From Candidatus Cloacimonadales bacterium (GTDB lineage Bacteria > Cloacimonadota > Cloacimonadia > Cloacimonadales > JAIOQZ01): a stretch of 64,000 nt of DNA. Numbering within the stretch: the stretch's first letter is position 1; every line of letters starts with the position of its first letter. A program made the position numbers. The stretch spans positions 1,152,001-1,216,000 of the forward strand of contig CAXXTU010000002.1 of NCBI GenBank assembly GCA_963662655.2. Reading direction: 5' to 3'. Of the stretch, positions 34,001 through 43,000 are shown piece by piece.

Positions 34001-37000
34001 TTGGTACCGGAAATCCCCGCGTTGAGCTGTTTGTGCTTCTCGATAAGCTCCGCCAGGAAATCCTCCTGGATGATGATGTCCGAATTCAGGATAAGAAGAA
34101 AATCCCCCTCGGCGTGCCTCACCCCGAGGTTCATTGCACGCCCATAGCCGAGATTCTCCGCGGATTCAATGACCTGCACTCCGCTGAACGGATCTCGTAT
34201 CCTCCGCACCGAGTCGTCCCCCGATGCGTTATCCACGACGATGATCTCGCTGGAAATCGAATGGATGTTCTCTAGAATGCTGGCGATGCATTCGCAAGTC
34301 ATCTCCGGTGTACGGTAGTTTACAATAATAATCGATACTTCCATGGGGCAATGAGCGGAGCTCAAATATTTTTGTCAACTCTGATCTGATGCATGAACGG
34401 AAACGATAAATCCCGCTTCTGAGTCATACTGTTTCTCATAGCAGATACCTCCAGACGCAATTTCAGCTCTAAATGCTTCGTCTAGCCCGAGATAAATCTT
34501 TTTGCACATGAGAAACTATATATACGGGATTCCCGGACATCGGTTTTATATCCGGGAAATCATTGACAATTGATCCTTGTTATGCTCGTGTTGTGAATGT
34601 GTGTAATTCTCGAATTCACATCTGACTACACGATAATGAGGTACATTTATGCCAGGATTCGAACCCGTCACACTCGATCAATGGATCGAAGATATCCTTC
34701 GGAAATACCCTGATTCACAGGATTTCCTGAGCAAGCGTGGGATCGTTTGCGTTATGTGCGGAGAGCCTGTTTGGGGTTCTCTGGATGAGCAGATGGATGA
34801 GAAAGGTTTCGACGACGCAAAGAAAAAACAACTTCTAGAATCGCTCAATGAATTCCTTGAAATCCAAAAAGGATAGGTTTAAAGTTCGTAAAGAAATAAA
34901 TTGTGGTTGACACGTGTTGTGATTCATGACTATTATGACCAGTTATTTCTGTTTTTTAACGAAGTAGCGCGATTATAATAAAATACAATCTGCGCGAAAT
35001 CCGCATTTCCCGCAGTGAAGGAGGATGTGAATGCTTGAAATGCAGATCGAGAAAATGCATCAGGCTCACAAGATTGTTGCCGACGCTCCCTTCGAAATTG
35101 TGCAGTTGAATCGCGGTTATGCCAATCGCACATTGCACATTGACATCAGTTCGAACACAATTGAAACCAAGCCCGTTACCCAGCAGATGAAAGACCTTTG
35201 GATCGGTGGGAAAGGATTCGACCTTTGGCTCACCTTTCAGTTAATCAACAGGGATACCAAATGGGACAGCCCTGAAAATCCCCTGTGCTTCAGCTCGGGG
35301 CCGCTTGGTGGCACAACTTCATTCCCGGGTTCTGGTAAAACCATTGCCACGACGATCTCACCTCTCACCCACTCAATGATGGACTGCAACGTCGGTGGAT
35401 ATTTCGGACCCTACCTGAAATTTGCAGGATTCGACGCGTTGAGCGTAGCCGGAAAGGCCGATGAGGAAACCATCGTTGTCATCGATGCCGTGAAAGCGCG
35501 CATCACCATCGAGCAAGCGCCGATGGAAAGCGTCGATTCACATCTCCTTGCGGAAGAGCTTACAGAAATGTACGCCGACGACGAGCTGGACAAGCGAAAC
35601 ATCGCCATCATCTCGGCAGGTCGCGGCGCTCAGCATAGCCGTATGGGCGTTCTCAATTTTTCATTTTACGACTGGCGTCGTCGCGTGGCTCGTCTCAAAC
35701 AAGCCGGCCGCGGCGGTTTGGGAACCGTGTTCCGCGATAAAAAACTCAAAGCGATCGTTATCAAGAATCGCGGGATTACACCTGCGTGGCGCGTGCACGA
35801 AAGCAAGGCCGCCCTCAAGATGCGCCCGAAAGAGCTCAAGAAGGTTCCCGACGAAAAGATGCACACCATCTGCGACATCATCGCCAAGTGGAACCGCGAT
35901 CCCGAGTACGTCATCGAGATGATGCAGGACATACAGAACGAGTTCCGCTGTATACCGCAGGCTGCGATCGACGAGCTGACCGCGCAGACGGGAACGCCCC
36001 GTTCCTGGCTCTATCATATCGCTACATTCTATAAAGCTTTCAGTCTGGAAGAAAAAGGCGAAACCATCATCCAGGTCTGTATGGGAACCGCATGCCACGT
36101 GAAAGGCTCCGCGAAGATTCTCGATGAATTCGAGCGCGAGTTGGGCTGCCCCGTGGGCGGAACGACCGAAGACCGCAAGTTCAGCCTGGAAGGCGTTGCC
36201 TGCCTGGGAGCGTGCTCCATCGCGCCGGTGGTGAAAATCGGCGAGGAAGTTCACGGCGGCGTGCAGGTCAAGGACGTCAGGAAACTGATCGAACAAGCCA
36301 AGAAGGAGAAGAACCATGCGTAAACTCTCACCCCATGATATTCCTCGCATCGCCGGTGAAGAGAAAGCACGTCAGGCAGCCTGGAAAGGCATGCTGATGG
36401 TATGTACGGGAACCGGCTGCGTTTCCGCGCATGGCTTCGATATTCTTCACGCGCTCCAGAAAGAGATTAAGGACGCCGGACTGGATAACGAGTGGGTCGC
36501 AGTGGGAACCGGATGTAACGGTTTCTGCGCAGCGGGTCCCATCGTCGTGGTCCAGCCGCAGGGCGTGTTCTATCAGAAAGTGAAAATCGAAGATACAAAG
36601 ACGATCGTCGATGAGCACCTCAAGGGCGGAAGTCCCGTTGAAAAGCTCCTGTTCAAGGATCCGGTCAGCGGAGTTGTCGCTCAAACGATGGACGAGATCG
36701 GCTTCTTCCGTAAACAAGAGCTGATCGCGCTTCGCAACAAAGGTCTCATCGATCCCGAGAATATACAACACTATATCGCGCGGGGCGGATACGACGCATT
36801 GCGCAAAATCCTCGAACGCCAGGAGCCGGAGGCCGTGATCGATGAAATCATCGCCTCGGGAATCCGCGGACGCGGCGGCGGCGGCTTCCCCTCCGGAATC
36901 AAATGGAGATCGGGTCGCAAGGCAGCCGAAGATCGCAACGAGGAAATCTACGTGGTTTGTAACGCCGACGAAGGCGATCCGGGTGCGTACATGGATCGCA

Positions 37001-40000: not shown

Positions 40001-43000
40001 GCAGCTCGATGAGAAACGTAAAGTACTGCGAGAGTATCGCTATCAACAATACAACAAAGCGCTCGATGCCGCTTACGAAAGACGTGGATGGACCCGGGAT
40101 GGCGTTCCGAAAGTCGAGCGTCTCAAGGAACTCGGTATCGATCTGCCGGAGCTGATTGCCATTATCCAGAATGATCAATCCGCATGAGCTTTTCGCCCGT
40201 AACGTGCCCGGATCCACCGAAGCGCTTCAAAACGCTGCGGTGGGTCTGGCCGGTTGCGGCGGATTGGGCTCTAATGTTGCCGTCGCCCTGGCGAGAGCCG
40301 GGATCGGAAAGCTGATCCTCGCCGATTACGATCGCGTTGAATTAAGCAATTTAAATCGGCAACACTATTTTCTTTCCGATGTGGGAAAGTACAAGACAGA
40401 AGCTCTGTCAGACCATTTGAGGAACATCAACCCGCAAATAAAAATCGAACTTTTCATAAAAAAACTTGCGCCTGCCGATATAATCACAATTTTTGGTCAA
40501 GCTGACGTTCTGATCGAAGCATTCGACAGAGCGGAAGCGAAGCAGTGGTTGATTGAGACATGGAGCAAGGCCTTTCCCAGCAGACCGATTATCGTTGGTA
40601 ACGGACTTGCCGGCTTGGGTGCAACAGAATCGCTTATCGTCCGTAGAATGGGACATATCTGGTTTTGCGGCGACGGCTTCAGCGACGCGAATATCGGGCT
40701 TTCAGCTCCACGCGTCGGGATCGTGGCGATGATGCAAGCGAATGTCGCAATCGAACTTCTTGGAAAGGAATCTCATGATACTGGTCAACGACCGAGATGA
40801 AGTTAGGTTTCACGAAGGTATAACCGTACGGGAAGTTCTGGACGCGATGGGCTATGATTGGGCATTATTGACCGTAACAGTCAACGAAACATTTGTCCCT
40901 CCGGAAGAATATCGCGCCTATGTCGTTCCCGACAACGCCGATTTCAAGGCGATGCATCTGTTCCATGGCGGATGATCTAACGATCGTCTTCGTTGGGTTA
41001 GTTGAACTCAAATGAAAAAAAGACTGAATATTAAGATTATCAATCGTAATCCACGATTCAATGCGCATTTTATGAGCGTTTTCGCCAACGAATAACGAAC
41101 ACATCCTGTATTTCTACAAATCAATCTGACACTATAAATCTATCTACATGGAGGAAAACACTATGCAAGCATTCTTACAACGACTGGGCATCAAAGAAGT
41201 GAATCCTGGCGCATACTGCGGTCGCTGGCTGGACACTCAGGGTGAAGTCATCGACGTATACTCTCCGATCGACGATTCCCTGATTGCGAAAGTTAAATCG
41301 GCCACGGTTGAGGATTATGACATTGTGGCTCAAGAAGCTCGCGAAGCCTTCAAAACCTGGCGCATGATCCCCGCTCCGCAGCGTGGCGAAATCGTACGTC
41401 AATTGGGCGAAGAACTCCGCAAACACAAGGAAGACCTCGGCAAGCTCGTTACACTTGAAATGGGCAAGATATACACCGAAGGTCTTGGTGAAGTTCAGGA
41501 AATGATCGACATGGCCGACTTCTGCGTGGGGCTCTCCCGTCAGCTTTACGGAATGACGACCCACTCCGAGCGCCCGTTCCACCGCATGTACGAGCAGTGG
41601 CATCCGCTGGGCGTGGTGGGGATCATCTCCGCTTTCAATTTCCCGGTGGCCGTGTGGTCGTGGAACGCGTTTATCGCGGCAGCATGTGGCGACACCATGA
41701 TCTGGAAGCCGTCGTCATCCACTCCGCTTACCGCAATCGCGATTCAGAACATTGTTCACAATGTTCTGGAAGCCAACGACATCCCCAAGGGAATCTTCGG
41801 AATGGTTATCGGACGCGGAAGCACCATTGGCGAGAAGCTGATCAACGATCCAGAGGTCCCGCTTATCAGCGCGACCGGTAGCTGCGCTATGGGCAAGAGA
41901 GTTCACCAGGCAGCGGCAAAGCGTTATGCACAGGTGATTCTCGAGCTCGGCGGCAACAACGCTGTTGTCGTGATGGAAGACGCCAACGTCGAGCTGGCGC
42001 TGAAAGCCGTTCTCTTCGGCGCGGTCGGAACCGCAGGACAGCGCTGTACGTCAACCCGCCGTGTTCTCATCCACGAATCCCTGCACGACAAATTCGTCGA
42101 ATCGCTCAAGAAGGCTTACTCGTCCGTGCCAATCGGCGATCCGCTCGATGGTAAGACCCTGATGGGACCGCTCGTGGACGAAGCAGCCGTCAAGGCATAC
42201 AAGAACGCGATCGAACTCGCGAAAGAACAGGGTGGTAAAATCGTTTACGGAGGTGAAAGCGTTGAATCCGGCGTTCCCGGCAAGCTTTACGTCAAGCCGA
42301 CCATCGTTCTAGCTGAAAACGACTGGCCTATCGTGCAGAACGAAACCTTCGCACCGATACTTTACATCATCAAGATCAAGGACATCGATCATGCGATTGA
42401 AATCCACAACGCAGTTCCGCAGGGACTTTCCTCGGCGATCTTCACCAACAACCTTCGCTACAGCGAACGCTTCCTCTCCCACGCCGGCAGCGATTGCGGT
42501 ATTGCCAACGTCAATATCGGAACCTCCGGAGCGGAGATTGGCGGGGCGTTTGGCGGTCAGAAGGAAACCGGCGGTGGTCGCGAGGCCGGCAGCGACGCAT
42601 GGAAGGCTTACATGCGCCGTCAGACCAACACCATCAACTGGTCAACCGAGATTCCTCTCGCACAGGGTGTGAAATTCGATATCGATTGATCGATCGATTG
42701 TAGATATAAAGGGAATCCTCCGGGATTCCCTTTTTCATTGTCTTAATCACGATTCACATGATTTCCGCGATTTACAGGATGGAGAGACGTCGCTGGCCTA
42801 TGGCAGTCGTACGCACATTCGCCCGATCGCCCCTCCATCGTGAATGAACACGCCTGCGCCGTGTAACACCACGCCTCCGGAGCGATCGAACGAATCTGCT
42901 GTACGACGATCAACTGAATCAGGCGATTGGAGGTTTTCCTTTACGTTTTCCATGCTCGTTTTACGGTTTGTTCATGAAGCATGCCAGGAGGCAATCAATG

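Follow-up and report, generated by a model that had tools for sequence, protein, structure and literature searches.

A WOR-family aldehyde oxidoreductase divided between subunits of a probable electron-bifurcating module in a Cloacimonadales bacterium, and its possible link to glutamate-5-semialdehyde

The closest described counterpart of the enzyme discussed here is WorABCSL of Acetomicrobium mobile (PDB 9MQX), a Class IV WOR of the Type 2 Bfu group whose BfuB belongs to clade 45 (PMC12318220, PMC9304861, PMC13328260). Class IV/Type 2 Wor-Bfu enzymes are defined by five subunits including WorS, and the operon types listed are SLCBA and CBASL. In the Type 1 Bfu enzymes (FeFe-, Nfn-, Fdh- and F420-Bfu; PMC9304861), among which no Wor member is listed, the catalytic domain is fused behind cluster A4 of BfuA. 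A role is known for only five of 92 WOR clades (PMC13328260). The WOR survey selected proteins with both the IPR013983 and the IPR001203 domain; since both were demanded in one protein, WORs split between two genes were excluded by design.

Such a split WOR lies in the window, which is the whole analysed stretch of 64,000 nucleotides from a Candidatus Cloacimonadales bacterium (the host). The features of the locus are as follows.

34907..34936, + strand: sigma-70-like promoter candidate upstream of the operon (TTGACA-18-TATTAT, 11/12 matches); weak, as 5 sites were found against 6.5 expected in shuffles
35031..36323, + strand: chain 1, 430 aa, AFOR_N (WOR domain 1, residues ~1-258) fused to BfuC/NuoE (282-423)
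36316..38196, + strand: chain 2, 626 aa, complete BfuB
38196..40187, + strand: chain 3, 663 aa, BfuA module fused directly to WOR domains 2 and 3
40171..40800, + strand: ThiF/E1-like adenylyltransferase (start of the longest ORF, 40156)
40775..40975, + strand: ThiS/WorX-like sulfur carrier, 66 aa, with a C-terminal GG
41148..42689, + strand: NAD-dependent ALDH7-type (L-piperideine-6-carboxylate) dehydrogenase, 788 bits against the pip_6_carb_DH cut-off of 730
42708..42733, + strand: intrinsic-terminator-like hairpin 3' of the ALDH gene, with an 11-pair stem; the total number of such sites is at chance level

The three split-WOR ORFs overlap head to tail on the + strand. Pfam assigns AFOR_N (33-246, E 2e-47) and 2Fe-2S_thioredx (282-423) to chain 1; Complex1_51K, SLBB, NADH_4Fe-4S and two Fer4 to chain 2; and Fer2_4 (2-80), Fer4 (127-187) and AFOR_C (207-648, E 3e-88) to chain 3, so that the two survey domains stand on two ORFs. 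The ORFs and Pfam matches bear out the preliminary description of a WOR in two pieces, fused to BfuC- and BfuA-like modules with BfuB between them, and the ThiF, ThiS and ALDH7-like genes that it placed downstream are all present. Its claim that this is the sole AOR/WOR-family enzyme of the genome agrees with a six-frame search, which gave one AFOR_N and one AFOR_C match, both at this locus; its neighbour counts (883 and 938 genomes) would also take in ordinary WorABCSL and Bam operons. Rfam gave no match in the split-operon region, and no Moco/Wco riboswitch was found at this operon in the host.

The host enzyme shares with WorABCSL a BfuA module with A1, A2 and A4 and without A3 (the best PDB match of chain 3 is 9mqx_A, WorA), the CGES and PRxKYxH motifs of BfuB, the WOR fold and worX/thiF-type neighbours. 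Both its cluster content (A1, A2 and A4 only) and its CGES motif, which clade-45 BfuBs share and which occurs in A. mobile Wor, Bam, Por and F420 Bfu, would fit a place in Bfu clade 45. The CGES motif is rejected as a sign of NADP specificity, as the NAD-using WorB of A. mobile has the same motif. Unlike WorABCSL, the host has three ORFs in the order N-C/B/A-L, which is neither of the listed operon types, and its WorL is divided, one piece being joined to BfuC and the other to BfuA; it lacks WorS, the zinc finger, the adaptor helix and the 1:3 nanowire, and its WOR part belongs to a distant clade (E 7e-14 to 9mqx_D). It resembles the Type 1 enzymes in that WOR domains 2-3, with the cluster and the second shell, follow A4 in the BfuA chain, but domain 1, which the catalytic site would need, is on another chain.

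A frameshift or assembly artefact is ruled out: the BfuA-AFOR_C fusion recurs in 42 of the best 80 related loci (of 577 confirmed), and among the 120 best AFOR_N homologues listed there is not one with AFOR_C in the same protein. Split forms occur in four-, three- and two-gene versions. Their intact relatives are WorL proteins of ~718 aa (L042-L080, for example Fervidicella metallireducens, contig L062), which are 58-63% identical to the host over domains 2-3 and 45-58% over domain 1; no characterised member was found. These single-chain proteins are colinear with the two halves (N ends at ~250, C starts at ~255-260), and bfuCBA apparently sits inside a formerly intact gene of this type, at the domain-1/2 linker. 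A clade-45-type bfuCBA would thus have been inserted there and have taken the place of WorS: a WorS-like gene occurs in 17 of 41 intact loci and in none of the 50 split ones, in line with the earlier claim that WorS is missing. The main split clade (51 rows) is nested among intact rows with a support of 100, and with 99 in both separate domain trees. AU tests do not reject that all split forms go back to one event (p 0.12 for the C part and 0.73 for the N part), even though free C-domain trees need 4 changes.

The product would be a WOR-family aldehyde oxidoreductase that bifurcates electrons and consists of three chains in a 1:1:1 ratio. Its W-bis-pyranopterin site would be restored when domain 1, on chain 1, folds over domains 2-3, on chain 3. 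The second shell of the W site is found in chain 3 (T227, E307, Y308, E309, Y430, H451, D333, D338), as are the [4Fe-4S] cysteines C274/278/282/492. Like P. furiosus AOR (1AOR) and FOR (1B25), the host has the fold, the T243/E313/Y427/H448 shell, DxxGxD and all four cluster ligands. Across split forms, 54-55 of 55 rows retain each of T243, E311, Y312, E313, Y427, H448, D338, D343 (PfAOR numbering) and each of the four cysteines, and chain 1 keeps PfAOR N93, G95 and R186. The pocket itself is altered. Lysine stands in place of R76 and R182 of PfAOR in every one of the 45 split and 42 intact rows. Of the two pterin-binding pocket motifs, DxxGxD is kept, whereas in DxxGxC glycine replaces D489 in 54 of the 55 split rows and in all 43 intact ones. 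The identity to AOR and FOR in structural alignments is ~20%. R76K, R182K, R430K, R444K, K450E, D489G and one extra residue in the Cys motif (spaced Cx3Cx3C in the host) are nearly fixed in the clade, so the cofactor or the chemistry may differ from that of PfAOR. The intact WorL clade has the same pocket substitutions.

An AF2 model reached a pTM of 0.73, but the region of the cluster loop is modelled with low confidence. Docking of the A module on the two WOR halves is weakly supported at 0.41 against 0.00 for the best control, with at least 60% shared contacts and a partner pLDDT of at least 79; of the solved pairs 116 of 157 attain this mark, as do 2 of 215 mismatched ones, but at 0.60 or below there are only 18 solved pairs, next to both mismatches. 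The preliminary description also made the formation of the catalytic unit depend on the docking of BfuA and BfuC, a claim which the relatives do not support: the N domain is a free protein next to a free BfuC in L114 and L115, and neither BfuC nor BfuB is at the L066 locus, so the tether to BfuC is dispensable.

The view that the split WorL is hard-wired to a Bfu core is upheld, and the bifurcation signatures are intact. Chain 1 holds the ligands of the BfuC [2Fe-2S] cluster C1 (C350, C355, C391, C395); BfuB holds B5 (C30/35/67/71), the FMN/NAD site, B1, the B2 site (C468/H555/C561/C566) and B3/B4, which completes the six cluster sites of the BfuBC core. A224, M226, F304 and GGPSG 427-431 of BfuB correspond to the Losey marks of bifurcating beta subunits (A/E232, M234, F367, GGPSG). 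Electrons would pass from W through the WOR [4Fe-4S] cluster, A4, A2 and A1 to BfuB/C, and this copy quite probably reduces NAD+ and ferredoxin together. BfuB is shortened, degenerate or absent in 11 of the 36 visible split loci, about one third, and bifurcation is therefore not obligatory for the split family. This observation, together with the point of Szaleniec and Heider that even WOR1 lacks an endergonic step, favours a Bfu part that is a mere NAD(H) or ferredoxin adapter; for the host, which retains all six cluster sites and three Losey sequence marks, we consider such a use rather unlikely.

Among the neighbouring genes, the ThiF-like cluster is found in 40 of the 50 split loci and in 13 of the 41 intact ones, and the ThiS-like gene in 37 and 18, respectively; the loci are often cut by contig ends. 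ALDH7 at 40% identity or more is found only in two same-genus loci and L057 among 91 loci; it is a genus-level neighbour and no conserved member of the split operon. Its orthologues in G084 and G087 follow Moco/Wco riboswitches. WtpABC, ModE-like and MoeA genes adjoin the WOR in 6 split loci.

How the host obtains its cofactor is a question in itself. In the near-complete genome no moaA, moaC, moaE, moeA or mogA was detected, and there was no match to MOSC, WtpA or TupA. Candidate tungstate transporters were rejected: the PBP_like_2 matches turned out to be PstS, and a sulfate-type system accounts for the ABC genes at C2:1.697-1.700 Mb. The label of a tungsten enzyme thus depends on cofactor import. 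XdhC and two XO-family enzymes are nevertheless encoded. MoeA is missing in 36 of the 40 WOR-carrying genomes of the order, and 34 of these 36 have the ECF S component of a riboswitch-led importer operon; among the phylum-wide loci ECF-S is found in 8 of 20 MoeA- versus 1 of 30 MoeA+ genomes. Importer-type genes are headed by 29 of the 49 Moco/Wco riboswitches inspected (78 found). In the ESM Atlas the pterin-fold protein of the importer meets only unnamed clusters, with PF00174 on 35-56% of members, and the host's own importer operon was found to lack the riboswitch, the lipoprotein and the close TonB receptor of its kin. From these gene patterns we consider it probable that tungsto-pterin enters the host ready-made, by way of an ECF-type importer, and that the host makes none itself.

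The same absence of MoeA, with the nearly fixed pocket substitutions, could speak for a clade that has no pyranopterin or draws its cofactor from an unrecognised pathway, where ThiS/ThiF may feed sulfur to another metal centre. For orphan molybdoproteins, Peng 2018 brings up forms that do without Mo or new genes for synthesis, and family f12, with XO-family genes in 10 of 10 genomes and no MoeA, importer or riboswitch, indicates that the importer cannot explain every orphan pterin enzyme. We nonetheless regard this as improbable, and a clade-specific pterin-free enzyme is largely rejected. The gene loss is order-wide and leaves XO-family and canonical AOR genes equally orphan; most phylum-wide carriers have MoeA (31 of 42 split, 29 of 38 intact); split operons have Wtp and MoeA genes at their sides, and 44 of 61 genomes still possess Moco/Wco riboswitches.

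The substrate is suggested by gene regulation to be glutamate-5-semialdehyde (GSA). B12 riboswitches control cofactor-free isoenzymes and vitamin importers (metE, btuB), and the Moco/Wco riboswitches seem to follow the same logic, a cofactor-sensing RNA heading an importer and a cofactor-independent stand-in enzyme. The only such riboswitch of the host lies upstream of an NAD-dependent P5C dehydrogenase (P5CDH) and lacks P3, as is typical of the tungsten type. OFF polarity is shown for E. coli only, and among the targets named in the literature covered are genes of synthesis, molybdate/tungstate transporters and Moco enzymes, but neither pterin importers nor NAD-ALDHs. By a hand tally of type-1 P5CDH only, the riboswitch is directly upstream of this gene in 17 of 23 WOR+ versus 1 of 18 WOR- genomes, kin that are not independent; in five WOR+ genomes no riboswitch was found upstream of P5CDH, and one further genome was not scorable. 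This WOR or P5CDH is present in 58 of 61 genomes, the three with neither being 68-83% complete, and type-1 P5CDH is absent from all 4 MoeA+ genomes. In G091 a Moco/Wco riboswitch heads the split operon itself. Intact relatives have the same proline/P5C context and share operons with proline-dehydrogenase-like genes: these genes, WorS and WOR form one run in 6 of the best 80 loci (of 577), three of them preceded by a PrdR-like regulator. P5CDH adjoins the WOR in L007, L017, L057 and L063, and the host has an ornithine aminotransferase. Canonical AORs, absent from the host, also occur in ~12 WOR+ kin, and the riboswitch logic could refer to those.

We lean slightly towards GSA/P5C, derived from ornithine, arginine or proline, as the substrate, with the NAD-dependent P5C dehydrogenase as a cofactor-repressed stand-in; 2-aminoadipate semialdehyde may perhaps also be oxidised. 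With the same architecture the enzyme could instead detoxify a broad spectrum of aldehydes, in the manner of A. mobile WorABCSL, and the link to P5CDH would then be incidental: most characterised WORs oxidise many aldehydes, the second-shell residues are the generic AOR set, and only 10 of the best 80 loci have a proline/P5C neighbour. With the single WOR and single riboswitch of the host, the latter heading P5CDH, and with the pairing and complementarity counted above, this seems unlikely. It is very improbable that the enzyme works chiefly in the opposite direction, as a confurcating reductase of acids, from glutamate to GSA for proline or ornithine synthesis or as an electron sink. AORs can reduce acids given low-potential donors (PMC9295118), but the potential that NADH plus ferredoxin reach is no more than intermediate and lies above that of the acid/aldehyde couple, and the enzyme that seems to stand in is an NAD-dependent dehydrogenase of catabolism.

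Overall, a three-chain bifurcating WOR with GSA/P5C as substrate and an imported cofactor is, to our judgement, the fairly likely best explanation. A lineage unable to make pyranopterin would import the cofactor from its neighbours and, when it runs out, the tungsten-cofactor riboswitch would turn on the NAD-dependent P5C dehydrogenase. That every part holds jointly, from the tungsten GSA/P5C bifurcating oxidoreductase with its split site to the pterin-importing lineage and the P5C dehydrogenase induced on cofactor shortage, is doubtful. In the literature searched, which covers subscription papers thinly, we found no description of the split enzyme, the pterin importer or a GSA-oxidising WOR.

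The split locus indicates that a three-gene redox module can enter an enzyme gene and persist, and it offers a one-site, WorS-free Wor-Bfu for study of the still unresolved mechanism of Bfu bifurcation. Cofactor uptake would be a concrete answer to the puzzle of the orphan molybdoproteins (PMC6147048), and if import is true, tungsto-pterin would be a vitamin that anaerobic communities share. For an uncharacterised clade that is widespread in amino-acid-fermenting anaerobes, the riboswitch logic points to a substrate that can be tested; if the whole is true, it would bring together a new physiological role of WOR, a minimal Wor-Bfu architecture and bacterial auxotrophy for a pterin cofactor.

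The layout described preliminarily, in which a tungsten aldehyde oxidoreductase (WOR) is spread over three ORFs together with the Bfu subunits and is followed by ThiF, ThiS and ALDH genes, was borne out when ORFs and domains were re-read:

35031-36323, WOR domain 1 (AFOR_N) fused to BfuC
36316-38196, BfuB
38196-40187, BfuA fused to WOR domains 2 and 3 (AFOR_C)

It is also, as claimed, the genome's sole AOR/WOR-family copy: the host genome, assembled in two contigs and 98.95% complete, has a single match for each of AFOR_N and AFOR_C. AFOR_C is absent from all 120 best AFOR_N homologues listed. 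The genes upstream of the operon, a formate-tetrahydrofolate ligase (27840-29510, minus strand) and flagellar fliD/fliS (23689-27067, plus strand), are ordinary and without a link to it.

The split WOR is a family of loci and not an accident of one genome. From the 600 candidates listed, 577 loci were confirmed, with record titles representing many phyla. The best 80 of them comprise 42 split loci and 38 others: 36 clearly intact ones plus L050, truncated by a contig end, and L078, interrupted within domain 1. Six of the 42 lack their 5' genes because the contig ends, leaving 36 visible layouts. Writing N for domain 1, L for domains 2 and 3, and C, B and A for the Bfu subunits (hyphen for fused, slash for separate genes), the host layout N-C/B/A-L is found in 15 of the 36 and N-C-B/A-L in nine; BfuB is in two pieces in one, shortened in six and a remnant in three, while one locus has N plus a remnant and one, L066, is N/A-L. 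The four-gene form N/C/B/A-L occurs in two kin loci, L114 and L115. Decay of the Bfu insert, with thioredoxin-like, FMN or ferredoxin domains lost and the split retained, can be followed through L001, L005, L007, L016, L018, L030, L033, L034, L038, L041 and L066.

The intact relatives, of about 718 residues, are colinear with both WOR halves and carry a short linker at the exact site of the Bfu genes. In a FastTree tree of the C part (122 rows), the main split group of 51 rows is nested among intact rows with a support of 100, and IQ-TREE subsets of 43 and 42 rows gave it a support of 99 for both domains. L066, L114/L115 and the tree row P0129 fall outside this group in the free C-part trees; AU tests leave a single origin possible (p 0.12 for the C part, 0.73 for the N part), and for the N part the constrained single-origin tree scored better than the free one. 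A WorS-like gene accompanies 17 of 41 intact loci versus none of 50 split loci. The ancestor would have been an intact WorSL, into whose worL gene bfuCBA would have been inserted with loss of WorS; the N part would then have fused to BfuC, followed by more fusions and decay. Since two other genera of the host's family have an intact WOR, and the host copy clusters with other phyla and not with the split copies of its own order, the sequences suggest that the host may have acquired its split WOR by horizontal replacement.

The split enzyme appears to work like WorABCSL of Acetomicrobium mobile, yet it falls outside that family by the family's own subunit test. BfuB has complete cluster ligands and the Losey marks; the best match of the BfuA module is A. 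mobile WorA, with A3 absent. The WOR survey PMC13328260 gives two types of Class IV WOR operons and admitted only proteins with both domains on one chain, and Wor-Bfu is classed solely as Type 2 in the Bfu survey PMC9304861.

Positions of the P. furiosus AOR were read from its alignment with the intact L062 (Fervidicella metallireducens) and transferred to the split chains. These keep T243, E311, Y312, E313, Y427 and H448, the residues named in PMC13328260 and PMC12096430, as well as D338, D343, N93, R186 and the four cluster cysteines. Six substitutions (R76K, R182K, R430K, R444K, K450E and D489G) are near-fixed in split and intact members alike, and are therefore older than the split. In a subset of the intact members, those of Bacteroidota (15 of 43 rows), Cys takes the place of D343 in the DxxGxD motif, a residue fixed elsewhere. 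An AF2 model of chain 3 (pLDDT 82, pTM 0.73) structurally matches FOR, AFOR, WorL and WorA. In complex models the A module scored 0.41 with the two WOR halves (best control 0.00), with at least 60% shared contacts and a partner pLDDT of at least 79; of the reference pairs, 116 of the 157 solved and 2 of the 215 mismatched ones reach the docking mark, and pairs reaching it at 0.60 or less include only 18 solved ones but both mismatched ones. The models lend weak support to the A module docking against both halves.

Profiles for MoeA_N, MoaC, Mob_synth_C and MoaE, each positive in 11 of 14 controls, had no match in the host genome. Neither did MoeA, MoaC, MOSC, WtpA and TupA of its kin used as queries, and kin MoaA returned weak radical-SAM matches and nothing better. 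The sole MoCF_biosynth match was rejected as a Moco synthesis gene; it is CinA. By these searches the host shows no detectable pathway for making the pterin cofactor. Across 61 genomes of the order (the host and 60 kin), the WOR clade is present in 40, 13 of them split, with MoeA in four, MoaC in five and a weak MoaA match in four. Controls show that the loss of synthesis is order-wide: enzymes of the xanthine-oxidase (XO) family are present in 50 of 61 genomes and canonical AORs in about 12, and the host retains XdhC (C2:984314-985120). Two XO-family enzymes are encoded in the host itself (C2:279281-282532 and C2:470800-474300, both minus strand), again in a genome lacking detectable Moco synthesis. 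The WOR clade could instead be pterin-free, but in the phylum-wide set (best 80 of 577 loci) MoeA is present in 31 of the 42 carriers of a split WOR and 29 of the 38 of an intact one, and WtpABC, ModE-like and MoeA genes adjoin six split loci. A preprint on Cloacimonadota (bioRxiv 10.1101/2021.10.08.463351) examined 35 genomes of clade I and counted AOR in 23; 'tungst' and 'molybd' are absent from its main text.

A pterin-dependent enzyme in a host that has lost synthesis may obtain its cofactor through a candidate ECF-type importer. A riboswitch scan with strict filters gave 78 Moco/Wco matches in 44 of the 61 genomes. Among the 49 inspected, 29 head genes of an operon comprising a lipoprotein, an ECF-S-like protein, a PF00174 protein (molybdopterin-binding fold), a phosphodiesterase-like protein, two ECF ATPases, a TonB-dependent receptor and ECF-T. 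Twelve head a type-1 P5C dehydrogenase (P5CDH), two ALDH7, two a WOR (in the kin genome G091, the split enzyme), and four Wtp/Tup, in exactly the four MoeA-positive genomes. Of the 61 genomes, 41 carry the importer ECF-S: 34 of 36 with WOR and no MoeA, two of four with both, and five of 21 without WOR. Phylum-wide (50 of 80 genomes tested), it is present in eight of 20 MoeA-negative versus one of 30 MoeA-positive genomes, the eight including five Cloacimonadota that partly overlap the order sample and one weak match. The host has:

C2:~512300-516000 (L163:7304-11094), minus strand, inner-membrane part: ECF-S-like, PF00174-like, small proteins, two ATPases
C1:38225-39007 (L164:6226-7008), on the second contig, ECF-T-like gene

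The host operon has no riboswitch upstream and no clear lipoprotein, and its TonB receptor is only distant; the window holds no Moco/Wco riboswitch. The only TonB-dependent receptor matched by the importer-receptor profile (E 5e-24, distant) lies at 4196-6370 of the window (minus strand), within a minus-strand gene run at 1580-13215; its best family is TonB-B12, far below the cut-off. Beyond the importer operon, Mu-type transposase-like and AAA-ATPase genes were recognized by eye at C2:505000-509800 (minus strand, L163), adjoined by three tRNA genes. One family of the order, f12 (G098, G106, G111, G116, G121, G125, G129, G133, G137 and G140), has no WOR, importer S component, riboswitch or MoeA in its 10 genomes, and XO-family genes in all 10; its molybdoenzymes would be orphans that the importer does not explain.

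The substrate is pointed to by the genome's only match of the Moco/Wco RNA family:

C2:2050521-2052302 (L143), plus strand, riboswitch (leader at C2:2050521-2050643) with type-1 P5CDH directly downstream

This riboswitch lacks stem P3, a form linked to the tungsten cofactor in PMC2408646, which also describes the E. coli Moco element as an OFF switch. Type-1 P5CDH occurs in 41 of 61 genomes, 23 with and 18 without WOR, and directly follows a riboswitch in 17 of the 23 versus one of the 18, in a hand tally of non-independent kin that covers type 1 alone, includes some kin carrying other AORs, and has one WOR-positive genome unscorable at a contig end. The sole WOR-negative case, G082, belongs to the host genus and is 90% complete. 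WOR or P5CDH is found in 58 of 61 genomes, and type-1 P5CDH is absent from all four cofactor-making ones. At six Bacillota loci, three of them preceded by a PrdR-like regulator, WorS-WorL lies directly downstream of genes whose beta subunit best matches PDB 1y56_B (E 2e-97). The database title of this match reads 'sarcosine oxidase'; we take 1y56 to be the P. horikoshii proline dehydrogenase. P5CDH adjoins WOR in four further loci, and the host has an ornithine aminotransferase. A soxA-like gene beside a soxB-like gene (C2:3255047-3257844, minus strand), 39% and 30% identical to the subunits resembling proline dehydrogenase that adjoin intact WORs, is a possible second source of P5C.

Among open-licence papers, none was found that describes the split enzyme, the importer or glutamate-5-semialdehyde (GSA) as a WOR substrate. 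What this analysis adds is a link from the enzyme's architecture to import of its cofactor and to a specific candidate substrate. The simplest reading of these gene associations is that WOR and P5CDH catalyse the same step, from GSA to glutamate. With cofactor available, the WOR would take this step, saving energy as reduced ferredoxin.
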